NCBI GenBank assembly: GCA_001821055.1
Contig: MHRT01000005.1
Location: forward strand, 156,378-220,377
Length of the DNA: 64,000 nucleotides
DNA from: Candidatus Taylorbacteria bacterium RIFCSPHIGHO2_12_FULL_45_16
GTDB taxonomy: Bacteria; Patescibacteriota; Minisyncoccia; Phycocordibacterales; PALSA-1337
Reading direction: 5' to 3'
Each line of letters begins with the position of its first letter. The first letter of the stretch is position 1. The translations under genes were made by a program, and so were the position numbers. The notes beneath the pieces were generated by a model. It did no database searches, was not told the DNA's origin, and saw only the letters and a list, made by a program, of their open reading frames with translations. Below, one piece after another: positions 3,146 to 51,594 of the stretch.

Positions 3146-4186
3146 ATGAAAAAAATTCTCCTATCAGGCGTCAAACCAACCGGTATCGCACATATCGGTA
3201 ATTATTTTGGGGCCATGAAGCAATTTGTTGATTTGCAGGATTTCCAAGATGGAACCTCAGATGGTTATCAATGTTACTTTATGATAGCCGATTATCATGG
3301 ACTTAATCTGATCCAAAATGGAGAAGAGATGAGGAGGTTAACTCTTGATCTTGCTCTTGATTACTTGGCAATTGGAATAGATCCCTCCAGATCAATTCTC
3401 TTCAAACAAAGTGACGTGTCGGCCCACACAGAGTTGACGTGGATTTTTGACACACTAGTCACGATTCCTTATTTGGCACGCGCTCACGCATTCAAGGCGG
3501 CAGTAGAAAAACTAACAGACGCCACAGTGGCACAGAGGCATCTCTCATCAAAATTGGAACAACTAACTGATATTAATGTCGGCACTTTCAATTATCCAGT
3601 TTTAATGGCTGCGGATATTCTTCTTTACGATACCGATGTTGTTCCTGTCGGCCAAGATCAGAAACAGCATGTAGAGTATGCCAGAGATATCGCGCTTAAG
3701 TTTAACCATACTTTCTGCCGAGATTCCATCTCGACGTTCAAACTGCCTGAGCCGTTGATAATAAAAGATGTCGCCGTTGTCCCAGGTATTGATGGACGCA
3801 AGATGTCCAAAAGTTACGGTAATACCATTCCGTTGTTTGCCACGCGCGGAGAAATCGAGGATGCCGTCATGTCCATTGTTACTGATTCCAATGTTACCGG
3901 AGCTGGTGGCATACCACCAAATATTTATAACATCCATAAACTATTCAAAAACGAGGCTGATTTAACACCTCTATATGATGCCCATAAAGGTCAATACAAG
4001 GCCCTTAAAGAGGCTCTAATTGAGGATATAGACGCTTTTTTGAAGCCAATGAGAGAAAGACGTGCCCAATTGAAGATAAATACCGATAAAGTGCTCGAAA
4101 TACTCAAAAACGGGGCTGAAAGAGCCGGAAAACAGGCTGATGCCAAGCTACTAGAAGTAAAAAAAATAATAGGGGTAACACCATAA
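3146..4186 (+). CDS. trpS: Tryptophanyl-tRNA synthetase
   Basis: Class I HIGH-like PTGIAHIGNYFG near the N-terminus; KMSKS motif (GRKMSKSYGN); 346 aa typical of TrpS. Confidence 0.85.
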   Translation: MKKILLSGVKPTGIAHIGNYFGAMKQFVDLQDFQDGTSDGYQCYFMIADYHGLNLIQNGEEMRRLTLDLALDYLAIGIDPSRSILFKQSDVSAHTELTWIFDTLVTIPYLARAHAFKAAVEKLTDATVAQRHLSSKLEQLTDINVGTFNYPVLMAADILLYDTDVVPVGQDQKQHVEYARDIALKFNHTFCRDSISTFKLPEPLIIKDVAVVPGIDGRKMSKSYGNTIPLFATRGEIEDAVMSIVTDSNVTGAGGIPPNIYNIHKLFKNEADLTPLYDAHKGQYKALKEALIEDIDAFLKPMRERRAQLKINTDKVLEILKNGAERAGKQADAKLLEVKKIIGVTP

Positions 4187-4235
4187 AATAAAGCGTTTTC
4201 GGCCTAAAATATCCCTCTAAAACACTGGTTTTCGC

Positions 4236-4280
4236 GTCTTCAGCAAATCTTTATCACTTCTTCAGCGAAACTTTATCGCT
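4236..4280. repeat. Tandem ~20-nt motif (cttcagcaaatctttatcac / ttcttcagcgaaactttatcgc), copy 1; inverted copy at 23967-24006
   Basis: The 41-nt block is near-identical to the reverse complement of 23967-24006. Both copies are intergenic. Confidence 0.6.
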
Positions 4281-10276: not shown

Positions 10277-10493
10277 AGAAGTAGCGTCTCACAAGGTGGT
10301 GCTCTCCAACTCAAGCCCCAGATACTCTGAGGGAACATCGGAGCGCCTCGTAAGTTATTATCGCATACTTCTGAGATAAGAATAACAAATGGGGCACACC
10401 GTGTGTCAACTAGACATGTGAATTACTTTTAATTTGTAATAAGATGCCTTGTGCAGGAGGCGAAGATTTGACAGAATAATTGCATTTAATATA

Positions 10494-42335: not shown

Positions 42336-42764
42336 TTATTGGGCCAAAACTCCGATTTTGAAATTGACAAGTTGGTCCGCCGGTTTTGATTGTTTATCGT
42401 GTTGATTCGTAAATGCGACGGTTCCGTCTTTGCCACAGATACTCAAAATAGCTTGTGCTCCTCCGGGATGTTTTTGGATCCAATCTGTTAGTTCATAAAC
42501 ATTCCCATTGATGGTAGTCCAACAGCTTTGAACATTACCATGCGCAGCAATTTGGGACATATTATAACTGTTTATAGGTTGTTGGGTTGCCGAGGTTGTG
42601 CTTGTCGGCACAACAATAGGTATATTTACAATTGAGTTATTTTTGTTTGGGCCGGATTCAGCTGATGGTGTTGAATTGGGAGAAGGGGTAACGAGAGTTA
42701 TGATTACGATAATTATTACGGCAACAATGACAAATATAATTGTTGTAAGATATTTTTTTGACAT
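42336..42764 (-). CDS. Membrane-anchored cytochrome b5-like heme-binding domain protein
   Basis: N-terminal TM and Ser/Thr/Pro linker. C-terminal YNMSQIAAHGNVQSCWTTINGNVYELTDWIQKHPGGAQAILSICGKDGTVAFTNQH matches the cyt b5 HPGG fold. Confidence 0.5.
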   Translation of the reverse strand: MSKKYLTTIIFVIVAVIIIVIITLVTPSPNSTPSAESGPNKNNSIVNIPIVVPTSTTSATQQPINSYNMSQIAAHGNVQSCWTTINGNVYELTDWIQKHPGGAQAILSICGKDGTVAFTNQHDKQSKPADQLVNFKIGVLAQ

Positions 42765-42857
42765 GTAATTATTGGGCTAATGGTTAAATGCACGGATAAT
42801 TATATTATGTGATAAAAAAATGTCAAAATTTTGTAACATTACATGAGTCAAATTACT

Positions 42858-43028
42858 GGTAGCCCTACGGGGAATCGCCCGCGCCTCTCGCCTCGCCAGC
42901 TCGGCTCGGGCTGGGCACCGGCTCGCGGCCTCGCGTGCTCGCTCGACATCGCTCCGCCGTTCGATCCCCCAGTCGCAGGCACTCAAAGTGCCTGCTCGGT
43001 TTCTACTAATATTACCTACTTAAGTAAC
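42858..43028. repeat. Direct repeat DR-A (171 bp), beginning with the tRNA-Glu 3'-terminal 19-mer gtagccctacggggaatcg
   Basis: Matches 49179-49350 with about 2 substitutions and 1 indel. Contains the hairpin gcaggcactcaaagtgcctgc. Confidence 0.85.
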
Positions 43029-43036
43029 GTCACCGA

Positions 43037-43083
43037 GTAGGCAAATTGTAACATTCGCGCGAACTTTTTACGAGCAAAATTGA
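43037..43083. repeat. Inverted repeat IR-L (47 bp), partner at 49089-49135
   Basis: gtaggcaaattgtaacattcgcgcgaactttttacgagcaaaattga is the reverse complement of 49089-49135 with 1 mismatch. Confidence 0.85.
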
Positions 43084-43088
43084 AGTAC

Positions 43089-44126
43089 CGCCGCCCACAA
43101 TTTCACTGGGGGCGTGCGAGGGCGGCGGGACTACTGCCTCGGCGCTGAAAACTCGGGGGACTGGGGGCGAGTTTTCAGCGCCGTCCGCTTTTTTGGGGGC
43201 GGGGATGGTTTTAAATTTAAAATTAAAGCGCATACCATTGCTGATATGCGCTTTCCTTAGTCCACGTGACCGTGACCGAGTCTAGCAAAGCACGCTGAAC
43301 AGAACTCTAGCGCACTCGAATTAAAGAACAATGAAATTTTGGAGGGGGTTTTACCTCCCTCCCAGTACTCCACAGCAGACAAGAATGCGTTAGCGAGCTT
43401 GCACTCTACGCCACCGGAAAATGGTAACAATAAAAATTCTTAGACGAGCCCCTGTTTTATCAAGGGCTCGTCCCGTAGACTGCCGCAGTGCACTTGAGTC
43501 TAGCCAAGCAAACTACAGGACGCTTCGGCATGAACTGGTATGCAATACGACCAAATCTAACTGGAAATTTTTGCACGAGTGATTTTTAGGCCACTCGTGC
43601 TCCTTAGAGTGGCGTAGCCGAGTATACTGAAGGAAACCAGACTGCAGCGGACCTCAGAACGCGGGGCCAAACCGGAAAGAGTAACCGACCATACCCGAAG
43701 ATATGGTCGGTTCCGTAGACTGCCGCAGCAAACATTTGGCGCACTGCACGCAACGGCAGCGAAGCCCAGGCTGCGTCACTATCAAAATCATCTAAAAATA
43801 GATTAACATAGATATTATAAAAAGTAAAGCGTATACCATTTCTGATATACGCTTTCATTAGTGAACTGCACGACAGCACAGCCTACGATAGTAAGGCACA
43901 GCATAGTCGAGCGAACCACAAAATGACTACGAAATTATAGCTATAGCCAACTGGACCGAACCAAGATTACTAAACCCGAGAAATTTTTAGTAGGAGTGAT
44001 TTTTAGGCCACCCCTACTCCGTACTGAACCCTACTGCAGGAAGCGCTACGATGGAGAACTGCTCCAAGCGTCACAACTGCGTAGTGTCAGAAATTGTAGC
44101 CGACCCCACCCGAAGATGGGATCGGC
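43089..44126. repeat. ORF-free block of at least 10 stem-loops at ~83-165-nt spacing, in families sharing the loop and inner stem while the outer stem varies with compensatory changes
   Basis: H3 43225-43254 aaagcgcata-ccattgctg-atatgcgcttt pairs with H8 43826-43855 aaagcgtata-ccatttctg-atatacgcttt (c/g changed to t/a on both arms). H6 cacgagtg-atttttaggc-cactcgtg pairs with H9 gtaggagtg-atttttaggc-cacccctac. H7 ccgaccat-acccgaagat-atggtcgg pairs with H10 gccgacccc-acccgaagat-gggatcggc. Most hairpins are followed by CC-R-TA-N (ccgtagactgccgcag twice). Confidence 0.7.
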
Positions 44127-44200
44127 CCGTACTTTGCAGGAGGATACTGGAGCGAACGCGAGCTCAGCTAACTGAAGCATGCACCAGTGTACCCTGTAAA

Positions 44201-46018
44201 CTACTTTCCCTTTAACAGCTCCTCTGCTTGGGAAATGCACTCGTCAAATGTACGATCGTTGACGTATGCCTTTTCAAGCCATTTGGGAAGTGAAGCGTGG
44301 ACGAATCGCCGGAACTGTTGAGACATGAATATTGTCACTCCAAGGTCTTTGGTTGAACGAATGTTCCGACCGCGAACCTGAAGTGCCTGTATCATAACCC
44401 GCCAATTCCACAATGCCCAGCGACTACCACCGAATCGTTCCTCCTCAAACTGAGTGCCCGGATCGCTTGGATTCGGATACCCTGGACGCAGGAAGAAGAT
44501 GACTGGAGCAATCTGTTTGGGCAGATCGACCCCTTCGGCATAGTTTGAAGCTGTGCCGCAGAGGACATCGCCTTCACCATCACGGAAACGAACTGCCGCC
44601 TCCTTGGCGGTCACACCGTTCCCATAACTGATAGCTTTGAGGCCTTCCTCTTCCGCCATCATCATGAACTTATCGCGCTCGAGATTCGAGATGGTGACGA
44701 AGAGACTACGAATCCCTTTGTCTGCCAATCGCTTCGAGGCGCGAGCGACCATGCGAATACTTTTCGGAAGATCACGATTACTGCGTTCGTTCACTGCCAA
44801 GTTGGCTGTGTTCGTCGGCATGAAGAGCCGAGCATTGTCAGATGGAAAGTTGGATTCCAGACTGAATACCGGATTCCGTATCCCCGTCTCGTGCCCGAAT
44901 ACCTCCGGATCACCGATCGTAGCCGAGAGCGCCACCGTCGTCTTGCCCATGATCTTTTGGATAATTGGCGCGACGTAGTAACACTTGACCACCAGTCGAT
45001 ACTGCACATGCTCCTTTTCACCCTTTTCCTCCTTGTAATAGGCGTAGGTGTAGTTGAGCGCGTGGCGATTCTGATCAGGAAGTGAATACTCGAATGAGCG
45101 CAGGTAGCGGCGAAGGTCTTTCACCACAACCTCAAGCTTCTTCAGAGTCTCTCGCTTCTCCACGACATCAATGACTTTTTCCTGCACGGCCTTTTCAAGC
45201 TTGCGCAGGAGTCCTGATTGGTCGATGACCTCGAGTTTCTCCATGAGCGCACCAACCTCGCGTGCATTGAGCACGGTTTTCTGATGCGCCGGTTTCGACT
45301 TGATGATGTAGATCAACTTCTTGTAGAAGTCGTGAAGCAATTCTGCCTCCTCGGCGCCAATCTCTCGCAGAAGCTCCACCGACTTGCGCAAATGCCAATC
45401 GGTTATTTCATACGAGAGCGCGTTCCTGACCACTTCGGCCATGCGGTGTGCTTCGTCAATGACGAGCACTTCCGGCTGTTCCCATTCCCGGCTGAAAAGC
45501 TGGGTGAAGAGATAGAAAGCCATAGTGGAAAGAACAATGCCACCCTGTTTAGCCTCGAACTTCTGCTTCAAGTACGGACAAGGGATCGCTCCCTCGACAA
45601 AAGTCTTGCCTGTTGCTTGGTCCACTCTATGCGGGCAGTCTTTGAGCAGTGAGCATGGGATTTCATCCGCCATCGGCTGTTTGTCTGCCGGCAGTGTGTC
45701 CTTGAAGTAGTGACATTGATGCTCATTGCGCCCGAGAGCGACCTTGAGATCAGGAAACTCTTGGCGGATCTGCTCCATCAGAGTCTTGTTCGTTGTGATG
45801 AGGAAGAGCGGTTGTTTCCGCTTCAAATCCGCGGCCTTGAGTACGGTATACTCTACGGCAGTCTTGCCGCTTCCTGTGGGAGATTCGATCGTGACCGAGC
45901 CATTCTCGGAGATGATACGAAACATTTCCCGCTGACTTGCCCACGGTGCTCTGCGGAGAGCGTTTGTGGGGAATGTCTCTTCTAGCAGAGACAATTTTAG
46001 ATGTTCCAGATGTTGCAT
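44201..46018 (-). CDS. DinG/XPD(Rad3)-family Fe-S cluster DNA helicase
   Basis: Walker A ESPTGSGKTAVEY; four Cys between motifs I and II (HQCHYF, IPCSLLKDCPHR, IPCPYL); DEAH box VLVIDEAHRM; C-terminal helicase motifs (VLCGTASNYAEGVDLP…VIFFLRPGYP). The track ORF extends to 46087; the likely start is MQHLEHL at 46018. GC-rich codon usage. Confidence 0.7.
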   Translation of the reverse strand: MQHLEHLKLSLLEETFPTNALRRAPWASQREMFRIISENGSVTIESPTGSGKTAVEYTVLKAADLKRKQPLFLITTNKTLMEQIRQEFPDLKVALGRNEHQCHYFKDTLPADKQPMADEIPCSLLKDCPHRVDQATGKTFVEGAIPCPYLKQKFEAKQGGIVLSTMAFYLFTQLFSREWEQPEVLVIDEAHRMAEVVRNALSYEITDWHLRKSVELLREIGAEEAELLHDFYKKLIYIIKSKPAHQKTVLNAREVGALMEKLEVIDQSGLLRKLEKAVQEKVIDVVEKRETLKKLEVVVKDLRRYLRSFEYSLPDQNRHALNYTYAYYKEEKGEKEHVQYRLVVKCYYVAPIIQKIMGKTTVALSATIGDPEVFGHETGIRNPVFSLESNFPSDNARLFMPTNTANLAVNERSNRDLPKSIRMVARASKRLADKGIRSLFVTISNLERDKFMMMAEEEGLKAISYGNGVTAKEAAVRFRDGEGDVLCGTASNYAEGVDLPKQIAPVIFFLRPGYPNPSDPGTQFEEERFGGSRWALWNWRVMIQALQVRGRNIRSTKDLGVTIFMSQQFRRFVHASLPKWLEKAYVNDRTFDECISQAEELLKGK

Positions 46019-46032
46019 GTTTCCTTTCTTCT

Positions 46033-46377
46033 CTACTTTTTGTTGTCGATCCAAGCAACGAGCTTGAACCTGCCGATTCCTTCCCACTTGTCCGACCGAC
46101 CAAGCACGTTAGGTGCTCCTGTAGGAATAGTCGTGTTTTCCATGAGCTCGTATAGACGCCCGTGGAATATTGTTCTGAGTCCCGCTTTCACGGTCTCATT
46201 CGGCCTTCCCATAATCGGCAGATAGCGGAATGTTTTGTCCTGCGGATCATATTCGTTCTTTCGTTCAGGTATTAGATGAGCATATTTGTTCACACTCGTA
46301 TGATGTCCGCGTCTTGGTCTGTGATCCGACTTACGACGGAATCGTGGACCATAATGTGGATAGACTTTTTTACCCAT
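46033..46377 (-). CDS. Hypothetical basic protein (island cargo)
   Basis: 114-aa ORF with the SD-like AGGAGAA 9 nt upstream; Arg/His-rich N-terminus. No family recognised. Confidence 0.35.
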   Translation of the reverse strand: MGKKVYPHYGPRFRRKSDHRPRRGHHTSVNKYAHLIPERKNEYDPQDKTFRYLPIMGRPNETVKAGLRTIFHGRLYELMENTTIPTGAPNVLGRSDKWEGIGRFKLVAWIDNKK

Positions 46378-46666: not shown

Positions 46667-46978
46667 TCACTTGGAGTCTACCAATCGAATTTGAGATAGA
46701 ATGATTTTTCGCGCTACCTTATCACCTAGATTAATATCCGCATAGTATTTTCCTTTTTTATTTTTTGTAGTAAGTGGCACAGATAAAAATACTTCTTTAT
46801 TGAAACCCTTGATGATTAGTACTGGGCGCGCAAAATCAAATCCTTTGCCATCCTGCTCAAATCCAACATTTTCTCCGAGAGAACACCACCAGATTTCTCG
46901 CTCATGATAAAATCGCCGCTCCTTTTCATTATGGATATTTTGCTTGAGTGTATGCCATTTTTGAAAATCTTTTTTCAT
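46667..46978 (-). CDS. MazF/PemK/Kid-like toxin-fold protein (mRNA interferase family); no adjacent antitoxin ORF found
   Basis: …REIWWCSLGENVGFEQDGKGFDFARPVLIIKG…FLSVPLTTKNKKGKYYADINLGDKVARKIILSQIRLVD matches MazF-like logic (RGDI…G.EQ.G.RP.LVL…P.T…….V…QIR.ID). 103 aa. Confidence 0.5.
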   Translation of the reverse strand: MKKDFQKWHTLKQNIHNEKERRFYHEREIWWCSLGENVGFEQDGKGFDFARPVLIIKGFNKEVFLSVPLTTKNKKGKYYADINLGDKVARKIILSQIRLVDSK

Positions 46979-47002: not shown

Positions 47003-48030
47003 GGCAGGCACTCATTGAGAATGCCCGCCCCATAGAATAGGACTAGTCTGGATTAGTGCAGCCAACTCCGCGCAACTTCACGGCACTGTAGACTGAAATT
47101 TCAGACAAGGAACAAGATGGATAAATCTCGGCGGGGAATTTTCATTCCCCGCCCCGTAGACTGGTGAAGCGTGGTTTAGTACAGGCCAACAAGGAGAACA
47201 GAACTACACCTTACCGGATCAAATCACATGTTGAAACCATGACTCCTTCTGTAAAAAGTAAACGGTAGGAGAAAGTTGATGCTCTCTCCTACCCCTTGCG
47301 CAACCGCACCGCTCCCTAGAGTAGCCCACGGGAGGGCAGCTAACTCCAACAAACGATGGTGGAAATGTAAATTCTGCCGTGGAGTTTTACCTCCACGGCC
47401 CATACTCGAGTGCACAGCAGAGAGGAAAGACGCGCTAAGGCGAACTCCGGGCTGGTTTACACTAGAGAAAAGTTTGGCGGGAGTTTTACCTCCCAGCCCC
47501 ATACTTAGGCACGCGACCACTTCAGGCCACAGTGGGCTAGGCCAGGTCACACCACCCTAAATTTGTTTTAGTCTGAATTTAATATAACATACAAAGCTAA
47601 ATTATGCAAATTTAAAGCGCATACCATTGCTGATATGCGCTTTCCATAGAAGACCGATGTGAAGCTTGGCGCACCTCACTGAAGACAGCGGCACGCGACC
47701 AAGGGACACTACAACGGACTCGAAAAGAACAATTATGAAATTATGTCGCGGAGATATTTCACTCCGCGACCAATACTAAACGGCAGTGTAGTCTAGCCCA
47801 CTGCGGCTAACCGAGCTACACCGAGGTGTGCGCGAGACTGCCACAAAGAACAAACTGGAAAGTGAAAGAATGGCGGGGAATTTTCATTCCCCGCCCCGTA
47901 ACACAGATAACTAGAGTTGCAGAAAAGTCCACCACAGTCCGGGGAACAAAACCGCACCTTACGCGACCCTACGTTACGCAAAAAATCTGAAAATTATAGG
48001 CGGAGGTCAATCTTGCGATCAACCTCCGCC
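47003..48030. repeat. ORF-free block of degenerate ~100-138-bp tandem units (three intervals of exactly 127), each carrying one stem-loop
   Basis: Hairpin starts at 47003, 47130, 47264, 47376, 47476, 47614, 47745, 47872, 47999. ggcggggaat-tttc-attccccgcc is identical at 47130 and 47872. gccgtggag-ttttac-ctccacggc and ggcgggag-ttttac-ctcccagcc share loop and inner stem. aaagcgcata…tatgcgcttt at 47614 is a third copy of the array-1 H3 family. Units starting at 47130 and 47872 also share caccttacYg about 80 nt in. Confidence 0.7.
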
Positions 48031-48146
48031 CCACAGAGAAGCCCGGGACAGTTTAGTTCAGTATGCCCTAGTGAGCGACACGCGAGCTAAGACCAGATCA
48101 CCGAACTGCAAACCCTATTGACTCTGAAGGACGCGCGGACGGAAGG

Positions 48147-48839
48147 TCAGCTGGTCACGACTTCCGCGAGCCGATTGGCACCATTGCCCGACACCGGTGC
48201 TGACGCTTCGGTTTCCTCGGACTCTTCGGGTCTCGTGCCTTGCTTGTCCGATTCTTCCATCGTCACTTCCCATTTCTTGACCGCGAAACGGCCGAAGGGA
48301 CCGCCCTTGTTCGGACGGAAGTCACCGATGCCCGCTTTGGAGCCGGCGGTGTCCACAAGCTGGCGAATCAGAGTGTCTTTCGCTTGCTTGCCATCAACTT
48401 GGAAGGTCACATCGAGCGACCAATCCTTGAACTTCGGGCGGACGATGCAGACGGCGATGTCCATGCAGGTACCGCGACGCATGTCGGGTTCCCACGCAAT
48501 TTCGCCCTTGGCGTTGTTGTCCGCGAACGGCAGAAACTCTTCCTCAATGGAGAGGAACGAGTAGAGCAAGGTGCCCTCAGCAGTCGAAACCGCCTTCTTA
48601 CCGTCGAATTTGTGGAACCGACCAGCGGCTTTGATGGCCGCGAGCAGATTCAGTGTGGGAATGCCCATCGGCCCGGTGCTGTCGTTCTGGCGGTAGATCT
48701 TCGTAACAGCTTCCTGTTTTGGCGACAGATCTTTGGCCTTGGGCGCATGGACTTTGGTACGGAGACCTTCCAAGGTCGCCGGAGTCATGCGATTGATAAG
48801 GAGTGGGCTAATGCCCACGAGTAGTGCGCGTATTTTCAT
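48147..48839 (-). CDS. Hypothetical protein (island cargo), acidic C-terminal tail
   Basis: About 230-aa ORF; the likely start is MKIRALLVGISPLL at 48839, and the track ORF begins at 48884. GC-rich. No family recognised. Confidence 0.4.
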   Translation of the reverse strand: MKIRALLVGISPLLINRMTPATLEGLRTKVHAPKAKDLSPKQEAVTKIYRQNDSTGPMGIPTLNLLAAIKAAGRFHKFDGKKAVSTAEGTLLYSFLSIEEEFLPFADNNAKGEIAWEPDMRRGTCMDIAVCIVRPKFKDWSLDVTFQVDGKQAKDTLIRQLVDTAGSKAGIGDFRPNKGGPFGRFAVKKWEVTMEESDKQGTRPEESEETEASAPVSGNGANRLAEVVTS

Positions 48840-49088
48840 AACCTTACTTTCCGACTTTAGAGCAGAATCAATGATCCTGCTCAAGACGTTATTACCTTTG
48901 TTTTATGCTGTCAAAGAAAAGGCTTTGTTAAGCCCTATAAATAGGTCCACCCTAATTACAAAAAAAGGTTAGCACATTGATTTATTTGTGTCAATAGCAT
49001 GCTTGACAACTTTACTATTCTATTTGTATATATAAATACATATAAAGTACACTATTCACGGTCTAATGCGTGTCGGTACAGCGGGACA

Positions 49089-49135
49089 TCAATTTTGCTC
49101 GTAAAAAGTTCGCGTGAATGTTACAATTTGCCTAC
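49089..49135. repeat. Inverted repeat IR-R (partner of 43037-43083)
   Basis: tcaattttgctcgtaaaaagttcgcgtgaatgttacaatttgcctac. Confidence 0.85.
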
Positions 49136-49178
49136 CAACAAAAATGGCCTTCGCATTCGCTTAGGCTCATTTTTGTAT

Positions 49179-49350
49179 TGGTAGCCCTACGGGGAATCGC
49201 CCGCGCCTCTCGCCTCGCCAGCTCGGCTCGGGCTGGGCACCGGCTCGCGGCCTCGCGTGCTCGCTCGGCATCGCTCCGCCGTTCGATTCCCCAGTCGCAG
49301 GCACTCAAAGTGCCTGCTCGGTTTCTACTAATATTACCTACTTAAGTAAC
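49179..49350. repeat. Direct repeat DR-B (172 bp), immediately adjacent to tRNA-Glu
   Basis: See DR-A. Separated from the tRNA 3' end by only 10 nt (aacatctctc, 49351-49360). Confidence 0.85.
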
Positions 49351-49360
49351 ATCTCTCTCG

Positions 49361-49432
49361 TAGCCCTACGGGGAATCGAACCCCGATTACTGCCTTGAGA
49401 AGGCAATGTCCTAACCGTTAGACGATAGGGCC
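49361..49432 (-). tRNA. tRNA-Glu (anticodon CUC)
   Basis: Minus-strand read GGCCCTA-TC-GTCT-AACGGTTA-GGAC-A-TTGCC-TTCTCAA-GGCAG-TAAT-CGGGG-TTCGATT-CCCCG-TAGGGCT-A: cloverleaf with G1.U72, 7-nt T-loop TTCGATT, anticodon loop TTCTCAA. CCA not encoded. Confidence 0.8.
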
Positions 49433-49501: not shown

Positions 49502-50944
49502 CTACGCTTTCTCAAGCCATTCTTTCTCCTGACGGACCACCAACTGGTCGGCCTGATCAGGATATTTCATTAACATCTTTACAATGCGCTCCATCCGAAT
49601 CGACTGTGAACCCTTGATTAGAACTAGATCACCAGTTTTGATGATTGTTTTGAGAAATTCCCCAGCTTCAATAGAATTATCAAATGCGTGGACATTTCCA
49701 ACCACAAAACCATTCTTCACAGCCTCATCAGCCGTAGTGCGAGAGCGTTGTCCAACTGTTACAAGCACACTTGCCACACCGACAACTTCCCTACCGATCC
49801 GCCGGTGTTCTTCAGCCGAATAATGACCGAGTTCCATCATGTCACCCAGCGCAATGATTTTCGAACCATTAGTTTCCAATTCCTTCAAAGTATTCAAAGC
49901 TGAAATGACCGCATCTGGTGATGAATTGTAGCTATCATCGATCAACGTCGTATCGTAGGAGCCAGCAATTATATTCATTCTACTTTTCGGCGCTTCATAA
50001 TTATTGAGACCGTTAATGATTGCCGAGATCGGAACATCCTTTACTTTACCTACTGCGGCTGCTGCCAATAATGGATACATGTATGATCTACCAAGGAGGC
50101 CATTTATTGAAACTTGGGTACTCATTCCATTCAAATTCAATTTGAAAGTAAAGCCAGAAGGAATCTTTGTAGCCACAGCCAAACTGGTTGAATTCGAAGC
50201 TGAAACTGGAATAGAACTAGTCTGATTTGACTCTTCACTAGTCGAAATTGGCATAGAAATCGACTTTGAAATTGAAATTTGGGCTGTGGCCGAAACCGGC
50301 ACTTCTGCCAATTCATAAACAATTCTCTGTTCACTCCCCTTCACATCGGCCTTATTAATTGTTCCGAATGAAATGACTTTTACATCTTTATCCTTGACCA
50401 GTTCTCCAAGCAACAAAACTTTTTCATTATCAGCAAAAAGCACTAACGTCCCACCCTTTTTCACAGCCGTAGCAAGTGAAGCCTTCTCTTCAAAGACTTC
50501 TTTCGGTGATTTGAAAAACTCGACATGGACAGGGGTTGAACTGACTTGAGTGACTACGGCAATCTCCGGATGAAGCCATCTGGCTATTTTTCTAATATCA
50601 CCTGGATGATCAGCACCAATTTCCAAAACCAAACAGTCAGGATATTCATTCTTCCGGAAAATCAATCCGAGACCACATGAAATATTCCGAAGCCAACCCC
50701 ACAGACTATGCCAAGCATTTGGTACGCCGATAATAGTCAGGGGCAAACCGATTTCACTATTCAAACTCTTTTCACTTTTGCGAACATAATTACTCTGATT
50801 CTTGAGCACGCTATAAATAGCATCCTTGGTTGAAGTTTTCCCTACACTGCCAGTAACAGCTACTATAAAAGGCCTATACTTGGCCAGAATGAGTCGAGAT
50901 TCGAGAATCAGGATTGCTGCCAGGATTTTCTTGAAGAGAATCAT
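49502..50944 (-). CDS. murF: UDP-N-acetylmuramoyl-tripeptide--D-alanyl-D-alanine ligase with a Ser/Thr-rich low-complexity insertion
   Basis: VAVTGSVGKTSTKDAI P-loop and DDSYNSSPDAV (MurF-type). About 60-aa insert SATAQISISKSISMPISTSEESNQTSS…. Confidence 0.75.
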   Translation of the reverse strand: MILFKKILAAILILESRLILAKYRPFIVAVTGSVGKTSTKDAIYSVLKNQSNYVRKSEKSLNSEIGLPLTIIGVPNAWHSLWGWLRNISCGLGLIFRKNEYPDCLVLEIGADHPGDIRKIARWLHPEIAVVTQVSSTPVHVEFFKSPKEVFEEKASLATAVKKGGTLVLFADNEKVLLLGELVKDKDVKVISFGTINKADVKGSEQRIVYELAEVPVSATAQISISKSISMPISTSEESNQTSSIPVSASNSTSLAVATKIPSGFTFKLNLNGMSTQVSINGLLGRSYMYPLLAAAAVGKVKDVPISAIINGLNNYEAPKSRMNIIAGSYDTTLIDDSYNSSPDAVISALNTLKELETNGSKIIALGDMMELGHYSAEEHRRIGREVVGVASVLVTVGQRSRTTADEAVKNGFVVGNVHAFDNSIEAGEFLKTIIKTGDLVLIKGSQSIRMERIVKMLMKYPDQADQLVVRQEKEWLEKA

Positions 50945-51594
50945 TGTTTTAGTGATTTTATATCCCCAATCTTTTCACTTATTTTTTTAACAGATAAATT
51001 ATTAACCAACGATTCCATTTGAAAAATCGCTATTTTATTTAACTTCTGAAGCCGTATATTTTGTGAAATTTTCTGTGGAATAATGTGTTTCCTGATTGCA
51101 TCAGTATGAATTTTATAATTCACCTTGGCAAGTAGACGTTTCAAATCCCAACCAGTAGCTATTTTCTCGTTTTCTTCAATTTTTAGGCGTTGAAACTCTT
51201 TGATCAGATATAGTTCAAACTCGGGACTAATCCAGGAAGCAAATTCAAAAGCAATGTCCATATGGCCATAAGTTCCACCATATCGACCAGATTTTGAAAT
51301 AAGCCCGATTGCGGAGGTTTCATTTATCCATCTTTTTGGTGTTAAAGAAAAACTATTTAATCCCGCCTTATTTTTAAACCCATCGAATTCGATGGAATTA
51401 AAGGTTGGATTATGAATTCGTTCCCACAGACCAAGAAACTCTATTGTACTCCTTGTACGGATCCAGTTTTGCAAAATATAGTCAGTTTTTTCATTGTCTT
51501 TATAGCGAGCAATATCAGACAAAGAAATAAAGTCGCCTGCCAAATGAGACGTAAAGCCAATCGAGATATCCTGTACGACTATTTTTTTTATCAT
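50941..51594 (-). CDS. KilA-N domain-containing protein (phage/mobile-element-associated DNA-binding fold) embedded in the dcw cluster
   Basis: …RYGGTYGHMDIAFEFASWISPEFELYLIKEF… matches the KilA-N core (GTWVHPDLAIEFARWLSPEF). 217 aa with a C-terminal coiled-coil. Confidence 0.55.
   Translation of the reverse strand: MIKKIVVQDISIGFTSHLAGDFISLSDIARYKDNEKTDYILQNWIRTRSTIEFLGLWERIHNPTFNSIEFDGFKNKAGLNSFSLTPKRWINETSAIGLISKSGRYGGTYGHMDIAFEFASWISPEFELYLIKEFQRLKIEENEKIATGWDLKRLLAKVNYKIHTDAIRKHIIPQKISQNIRLQKLNKIAIFQMESLVNNLSVKKISEKIGDIKSLKQ

Follow-up and report, generated by a model that had tools for sequence, protein, structure and literature searches.

VIPR (Viral Interference Programmable Repeat) systems were described in 2026, in two preprints, as CRISPR-like systems of RNA-guided DNA binding; the examples known from these accounts come from phages and proteobacteria (bioRxiv 10.64898/2026.04.26.720920, 10.64898/2026.04.26.720927). 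As the first preprint presents them, the systems consist of a small Cas7-like Vipr protein (a RAMP protein of ~20-25 kDa), an accessory gene called vap, and vrRNAs of ~100 nt, whose genes occupy long intergenic regions around vipr and vap, either singly upstream or arrayed downstream (10.64898/2026.04.26.720920). The published vrRNA is composed of 9-16 YNNGG repeats and a structured 3' tail. Vipr protomers polymerise on the repeats, in which GGY is sequestered and NN presented, and the NN bases read double-stranded DNA with a 1-nt skip to give an R-loop triplex, silencing the transcription of competing phages and satellites (10.64898/2026.04.26.720920). The same preprint reports seven VIPR types, the variant repeats NNNGG, YNNNG and NNNNG, nucleases or helicases among the vap genes of types III-V, and 667 classified systems (10.64898/2026.04.26.720920). 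In this study, we focused on a hairpin array in a stretch of 64,000 nucleotides (the window) from Candidatus Taylorbacteria bacterium RIFCSPHIGHO2_12_FULL_45_16, which an earlier reading of the letters (the original prediction) had singled out as a set of conserved stem-loops.

The hairpin array very probably represents eight vrRNA genes of a helicase-associated VIPR system carried by an island of ~6.5 kb at a tRNA-Glu gene. The locus is a new representative of the recently described VIPR class; its repeat scaffold is relaxed, and its tails are simple hairpins that vary. We established the homology of its Vipr protein, the pentamer periodicity of its repeats, the strand and the hairpins of its units, and the facts that the gene order is conserved and that whole units turn over. 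The class is also present, therefore, in ultra-small candidate phyla radiation (CPR) bacteria, in which few defence systems are known, and the locus brings together 17 guides, a helicase partner and a tRNA-integrated island. The coordinates of all features are given in Table 1.

Pentamer repeats, hairpin tails and protein genes

The ~65-80 nt between the hairpins follow a strict period of 5 nt, which is seen when the minus strand is cut into 5-mers backwards from each stem. The tract that precedes hairpin H8, for example, reads TGTGG TTCGC TCGAC TATGC TGTGC CTTAC TATCG TAGGC TGTGC TGTCG TGCAG TTCAC TAATG. When the 17 units of the two arrays were pooled, position 0 of the pentamer was a pyrimidine in 91% of cases (T 67%, C 24%) and position 4 was G or C, likewise in 91% (G 49%, C 42%), while positions 1-3 were near uniform, the last of them being weakly purine-rich. 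The mean pyrimidine fraction in the best register was 0.919, compared with 0.709 ± 0.016 in shuffled sequences (12.8 standard deviations (SD) above), and no other period from 3 to 8 behaved like 5. Most units hold 11-16 in-phase repeats; H4 is degenerate (~9), and the tracts of H7, Hh and He contain one 6-nt unit each, the register shift of H7 having been read from the sequence. The string ACTGCCGCAG, which is common to H5 and H7, consists of two in-phase pentamers. Each vrRNA unit is built on the same plan: YNNNS repeats come first, then a GC-rich hairpin whose loop is of the GNRA or UUCG kind, and finally a tail rich in U. A scan of the window found 17 minus-strand tracts, all but one of them (16/17) in 43250-44201 or 47026-48115, whereas the shuffled window gave 4-9 tracts over both strands.

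This code had escaped the original prediction, which took the hairpins for the main feature and read them on the plus strand; the functional strand is the minus strand. The CC-R-TA motif that it had noticed after the hairpins is indeed present and is the reverse complement of the final pentamer TAYGG, the form found being usually TACGG, TATGG or TAAGG. The region had also been described as lacking open reading frames (ORFs). ORFs of 40-91 aa do overlap array 1; they coincide with the vrRNA units, whose 5-nt period does not fit a codon frame.

As for the hairpins themselves, at least ten had been predicted in about 1.04 kb. Ten were found in 43084-44126 (H1-H10), and every one folds below its shuffled counterparts, by 2.9-7.9 SD. 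Eight of them, H3-H10, each terminate a minus-strand unit of ~95-115 nt. In both arrays a tail hairpin of 8-15 bp (z -3.7 to -7.9) is present at the end of every unit. The three hairpin families of the prediction were recovered as direct repeats: H3/H8 at 43219/43820 (43 nt, 88% identity), H6/H9 at 43565/43982 (42 nt, 81%) and H7/H10 at 43675/44090 (36 nt, 78%). So were the compensatory changes on both arms of the stems. In an alignment of H3, H8, their array 2 copies and copies from two related loci, 13/13 pairs are standard in 100% of the cells, and two pairs have changed on both sides. Direct reading of the sequences gave two double changes and one A-U to G-U change between H6 and H9, and three double changes and one C-G to U-G change between H7 and H10. 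These results support selection on the stems for pairing and bear out the earlier view of the units as a structured-RNA family, in which the tails of H3/H8, H6/H9 and H7/H10 are paralogues.

The strand of these units can be read from their folding. Summed over the 17 tail hairpins of both arrays, the free energy (dG) is -332.8 kcal/mol on the minus strand and -263.6 kcal/mol on the plus strand, a gap of 69 kcal/mol, and G-U pairs number 19 on the former versus 2 on the latter. The loops are GAAA, GCAA and cUUCGg on the minus strand, which appear as TTTC, TTGC and cccgaaga on the plus strand. The G-U asymmetry and the GNRA and UUCG loops point to an RNA made from the minus strand. This is also the sense strand of all neighboring genes, all vrRNA units share one orientation, and 9/14 of the terminator-like sites predicted in the island are vrRNA tail hairpins on the minus strand. 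Taken together, these findings indicate that the minus strand is the functional one and that the product is RNA. An Rfam search of the window at gathering thresholds and an E-value search of 42700-44300 gave no match in the arrays, and no hammerhead ribozymes were detected between the units.

The original prediction had found no partner enzyme in the vicinity. In fact, a helicase gene abuts array 1 and the vipr gene lies within the same island. A profile built for the 245-aa ORF from 43 homologues matched the "SUSP1 Vipr protein" (PDB 36pp) over its full length with an E-value of 1.3e-21; the single sequence matched with 3.8e-5, and both proteins have the motif AG..G.GD(F/W)RP..FGRF. The ORF had no match in Pfam or PADLOC, and the only PHROG that matched it is unannotated. 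Its AlphaFold (AF2) model has a pLDDT of 85 and a pTM of 0.77, and the best solved folds in a Foldseek search with this model were type VII Cas7 and Csm3 (E ~1e-6, probability 1.00). A full profile search yielded 8,887 Vipr-like cluster representatives at E <= 1e-3. Since only 667 systems have been classified, most of the family, with its ~8,900 representatives, is unexplored.

The helicase contains the Pfam domains Helicase_C_2, DEAD, ResIII and DEAD_2. Its best PADLOC match is typeIV_DinG (4.9e-43) and its best relatives in the PDB are archaeal XPD proteins (5e-10). It scored below every cut-off of the NCBIfam DinG, YoaA and Csf4 models (26 bits for Csf4, against a cut-off of 400). We presume that it is the Vipr-accessory (vap) gene. 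On the minus strand, the order of the genes is vipr, nine vrRNA genes, two cargo genes, the helicase gene and eight vrRNA genes.

Conservation of the locus and turnover of its units

In Patescibacteria, close relatives of the helicase number in the hundreds, and the order vipr, array, helicase, array is seen again in about 15 loci of this group. All five helicase-seeded loci with enough flank encode a Vipr homologue upstream of the helicase gene (hmmsearch 5e-31 to 7e-62). In these loci, the regions free of genes to either side of the helicase gene are occupied, on its sense strand, by YNNNS tracts with hairpins after them (12, 24, 61, 14 and ~43 tracts). In one locus (L003) vipr is inverted, and its array is inverted along with it. 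A genome scan seeded with Vipr produced 14 loci, mostly from Nomurabacteria, Taylorbacteria, Saccharibacteria, Doudnabacteria, Komeilibacteria and other Parcubacteria. Tracts occur beside vipr in all of these and directly downstream of it in 13; the helicase gene is within 2 kb of vipr in 9/14.

Some of these loci deserve mention in their own right. Two of them have arrays much larger than those of the window: L005 (GCA_040384205.1, 4768-15012) has ~61 YNNNS tracts and L009 (4313-11297) ~43, each with two Vipr homologues, the tracts being ~75-80 nt apart in gene-free stretches of up to 3.8 kb. At the other extreme, L026 (NYZP01000001.1, a contig of 224 kb) has a Vipr homologue, only two vrRNA tracts and no helicase gene within 7 kb; it is a helicase-less variant of the same clade.

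A close comparison is provided by L007, a relative whose helicase DNA is 90.6% identical to that of the window. Between its positions 3360-4246 and positions 43200-44215 of the window, H3, H4, H5, H6 and H8 are conserved at 93-99%, and the stem of H4 is perfect in the relative. In place of H7, on the other hand, the relative has a guide and tail that are unrelated to it, and a single different unit stands where the window has H9 and H10. The four conserved guides differ by 11 substitutions, of which three (all T>C) are at position 0, one (C>G) is at position 4 and seven are at positions 2-3. The substitutions at positions 0 and 4 preserve the class of the base, and the scaffold class has therefore been kept. 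The contig of this relative (4.2 kb) has the same H3-type hairpin at both ends (1-25 and 4221-4245), a sequence repeated in both arrays. Because tails are repeated in this way, short-read assemblies of such loci are probably broken or falsely circularised.

A different relation holds between guides and tails. Array 2 contains an identical copy of the H3 hairpin in one of its units, and guides on identical or paralogous tails agree at variable positions only at chance level (9/39 for H3 versus Hf, for example). The tails behave like reusable handles and the guides like spacers. The turnover of vrRNA units is cassette-like and reminiscent of spacer turnover in CRISPR arrays. The original prediction had explained the array by an ancient tandem duplication followed by divergence. 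The sharing of tails agrees with this, but the unrelated guides on identical tails and the units swapped in the relative do not. The order A,B,C,D,E,A',D',E' on which it had relied is seen, but it reflects sub-arrays, each of which is closed by a terminator-type tail of the "aaagcg" kind, with a promoter-like, AT-rich stretch beyond it; after H8 this stretch contains TATAAT. H6 starts only 6 nt past the tail of H7, which suggests that some units are co-transcribed.

Proposed mode of action and rival explanations

Expression, filament formation, DNA targeting and the role of the helicase are what we infer by homology with the characterised SUSP1 and P. fulva systems. One Vipr protomer would occupy each pentamer, with the S and Y scaffold bases buried and the variable bases presented. 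The resulting helical filament may read double-stranded DNA through a gapped code and form an R-loop or triplex that would keep a competing mobile element from being transcribed. The 3' hairpin would cap the repeat tract, and in this clade it probably also serves as an intrinsic terminator or as a protector of the 3' end. The helicase presumably acts on the bound target, by analogy with DinG of type IV-A CRISPR systems.

The likeness to published VIPR systems extends to many features. A small Cas7-like Vipr protein, pentamer-repeat RNAs of ~100 nt with a structured 3' tail, and scaffold positions alternating with hypervariable ones are common to both, the repeats numbering mostly 11-16 here. 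So are the single accessory gene, the mobile-element context and the location of the vrRNA genes, which occupy long intergenic stretches to either side of the protein genes. The nearest kin of the locus is the helicase-associated type or types among types III-V. The locus differs from the published systems in its repeat, where three positions vary and position 4 may be either G or C (YNNNS instead of YNNGG), and in its plain hairpin tails, the sequence of which varies from unit to unit within one array. It differs also in its large arrays (17 vrRNAs here and ~60 tracts in one relative) and in its Patescibacteria hosts.

Several of these differences, together with the results of target searches, weigh against the assignment to VIPR. 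The canonical GGY/NN consensus (YNNGG) is replaced by a pooled consensus of YNNNS, and usually only the repeat adjacent to the tail is YNNGG; the GGY motif is not kept, since position 4 is divided between G and C and position 3 is only weakly purine-rich. The tails are simple, variable hairpins, whereas the tail of the SUSP1 clade is invariant and pseudoknotted. The locus is assigned to VIPR at the level of the class, and vrRNA expression in this organism is predicted from the homology named above. No targets of the guides above the permuted-guide null were found in the masked window under 13 pairing and skip models, or in 275 kb of related loci under seven models, the latter with 120 guides drawn at random from the 167 found. 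Viral contigs gave 0 matches in four exact-pattern scans. One metagenome scan returned three matches. They fall within ordinary genes of cells, which encode a KAP NTPase fusion and a MotA/ExbB-like protein, and the remaining repeats at these matches agree in one of six, which is the chance level. As to the repeat, the YNNNS consensus does not exclude membership of VIPR, because the preprint accepts YNNNG, NNNGG and NNNNG (10.64898/2026.04.26.720920).

Other explanations of the array were weighed against the VIPR assignment. It is quite unlikely that the units are independent small regulatory RNA genes or stacked intrinsic terminators without any link to the Vipr-like protein. Each unit does end in a terminator-like hairpin with a T-rich tail, and promoter-like hexamers are present in some of the inter-unit stretches; but neither the strict 5-nt Y....S period over 55-80 nt in every unit nor the association with vipr, which is constant over about 15 further loci, can be accounted for in this way. 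Because array 2 ends in a hairpin and seven T ~25 nt upstream of the start of the PemK gene, in the order toxI-terminator-toxN, a type III toxin-antitoxin system might be considered, in which the repeat RNA upstream of PemK/MazF would be the antitoxin. Near-identical repeats obligatorily linked to a toxin are expected of such a ToxIN-like system. The units here differ from one another instead of being near-identical tandem copies, no toxin gene accompanies array 1, L007 keeps its arrays without most of the PemK gene, and many loci have arrays but no PemK. We rejected this candidate as highly improbable.

Hardly any credit can be given to a TIGR-Tas array, in which the stem-loops would carry dual-spacer guides that resemble box C/D RNAs and are bound by a protein with a Nop domain. 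TIGR arrays are found in phages and CPR genomes and consist, like the present units, of tandem guides with variable but palindromic stems (PMC12045711), the stems being conserved in structure and variable in sequence. However, TIGR-Tas systems have two 9-nt spacers in the loop, box C/D motifs and a Nop-domain effector, none of which is found here: no RUGAUGA box C occurs in either array on either strand, loops of 4-10 nt cannot hold two spacers, and the flanking proteins are a RAMP protein and a helicase. Scarcely credible, too, is the suggestion of the original prediction that the hairpins act as DNA, as substrates of REP/RAYT, IS200/IS605 or other HUH enzymes or as attC-like sites. The many imperfect palindromes with a short conserved flank do resemble REP/BIME and IS200/IS605 elements, and the island, a mobile element, has both inverted and direct repeats. 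Those elements, however, act as DNA, are dispersed over genomes and depend on a Y1/HUH transposase. The present units are associated with a RAMP protein, share one orientation and are clustered in two arrays, their hairpins with the motif and their pentamer tracts being confined to 43225-44196 and 47003-48110 of the window; the G-U strand asymmetry and the GNRA and UUCG loops point to strand-specific RNA, and Pfam, PADLOC and PHROG scans found no transposase domain in the ORFs of the island.

The VIPR locus also resembles type IV-A CRISPR-Cas, in which a RAMP filament on a guide RNA works with an XPD/DinG helicase, without a nuclease, on mobile elements. Type IV-A systems have a Csf2/Cas7 backbone, the DinG helicase Csf4 and, unlike the guides here, contiguous spacers; a CRISPR array and the genes csf1, csf2, csf3 and csf5 are expected beside DinG. 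This candidate was also rejected: there are no CRISPR repeats or direct-repeat array and no homologues of Cas5, Cas6 or Cas8, and only the helicase matches type IV.

A bolder proposal is that the Patescibacteria clade constitutes a VIPR type with a reading code other than the published GGY/NN rule and its 1-nt skip, an active source of guides and a bridge to CRISPR; we regard it as tentative and rather doubtful. With S and Y fixed and three bases free, each protomer might read three target bases. The exchange of whole guide-plus-tail units between elements with 90-97% identity elsewhere hints at cassette exchange or guide acquisition rather than slow point mutation. Through its constant pairing with a DinG/XPD helicase, the clade could be the nearest analogue of type IV-A outside CRISPR and might be an evolutionary link. 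Whatever the fate of this proposal, the relaxed YNNNS scaffold and the variable hairpin tails are natural variants from which it may be learned what Vipr must recognise in its RNA, and the guides would document the opponents of these organisms or of their mobile elements, once the reading rule is known.

The island and its other features

Table 1. Features of the VIPR island and its surroundings (positions in the window; a dot marks features given without a strand)
Feature	Position	Strand	Description
Cytochrome-b5-like ORF	42336-42764	-	Other flank of the array 1 region; the helicase gene ends at 44201
178-nt direct repeat	42854-43031 and 49176-49353	.	GC-rich; the two copies flank the module and are 98% identical, each starting with the tRNA-Glu 3' end (~20 nt)
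55-bp inverted repeat, left arm	43037-43091	.	Partner at 49081-49135, 95% complementary; the pair brackets the whole module
H1 and H2	43084-43183	.	Pair of long, GC-rich hairpins at the module's end, dG -26 and -28 kcal/mol
vrRNA array 1	43225-44196	-	Eight vrRNA genes, predicted to be transcribed from H10 to H3; directly downstream of the helicase stop codon
vrRNA H3	43225-43319	-	13 repeats 43255-43319; tail hairpin 43225-43254, GCAA loop, terminator-like
vrRNA H4	43343-43415	-	Degenerate tract, ~9 repeats with register shifts; tail hairpin 43343-43365
vrRNA H5	43443-43547	-	15 repeats 43473-43547; tail hairpin 43443-43472
vrRNA H6	43573-43676	-	15 repeats 43602-43676; tail hairpin 43573-43600
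vrRNA H7	43683-43770	-	~11-12 repeats (~43713-43770), one 6-nt unit; tail hairpin 43683-43712, cUUCGg loop
vrRNA H8	43826-43920	-	13 repeats 43856-43920; tail hairpin 43826-43855, GAAA loop, terminator-like
vrRNA H9	43989-44083	-	13 repeats 44019-44083; tail hairpin 43989-44018
vrRNA H10	44099-44196	-	14 repeats 44127-44196; tail hairpin 44099-44126, cUUCGg loop
Helicase (presumed vap)	44201-46018	-	XPD/Rad3/DinG-family superfamily 2 (SF2) helicase, 605 aa from the start shared with homologues
114-aa ORF	46033-46377		No family match; between array 2 and the helicase gene
PemK/MazF-like toxin	46667-46978	-	Pfam PF02452, 4.2e-7; no obvious antitoxin
vrRNA array 2	47003-48110	-	Hi to Ha, nine vrRNA genes immediately downstream of vipr
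vipr	48147-48884	-	245-aa Cas7-like RAMP protein
55-bp inverted repeat, right arm	49081-49135	.	
tRNA-Glu(CUC)	49360-49432	-	3' end recurs at 49178-49199 and 42856-42877 (also 49357-49378); three occurrences

The 3' end of the tRNA-Glu gene recurs at the borders of the island, which makes this gene the likely integration site. The repeats of the tRNA-Glu end look like the product of tandem or nested integration, and the island itself looks like a small integrated element that lacks an integrase of its own: no integrase is encoded in it, and no transposase is encoded between the inverted repeats. The protein-coding parts of the island have a G+C content of 0.52-0.54, compared with about 0.43. 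The PemK/MazF-like gene and the 114-aa ORF appear to be inserted cargo, because both are missing from L007. The last tail hairpin of array 2 (47003-47029) is the one followed by the run of seven T. In BLASTN comparisons of the island with phage and plasmid collections, no match was found, and scans of viral contigs for the H3 hairpin and for relatives of the helicase likewise gave no match.

H1 and H2 have no upstream pentamer tract and are hairpins of a different kind from those of the vrRNA units, at the distal end of array 1. The 178-nt repeat was considered as a plus-strand vrRNA and rejected: it lacks a 5-nt periodicity (z 0.7), its fold is not significant (z -1.8), and the related loci contain no copy of it.

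A few further observations concern the surroundings of the arrays. The 55-bp inverted repeats resemble the ends of transposons, and a plus-strand terminator-like hairpin (43184-43203) adjoins H1 and H2. Just beyond the tRNA-Glu gene, a KilA-N domain protein is encoded on the minus strand (50941-51594; match to PDC-S22, a candidate defence family of PADLOC, E 4.6e-87), and an ORF6N/KilA-N-like gene adjoins the array of L003. Far from the island and unrelated to the array, the window contains a DUF3800-V RNA motif on the minus strand at 10277-10372 (Rfam RF02964, 76.7 bits, E 1e-15).

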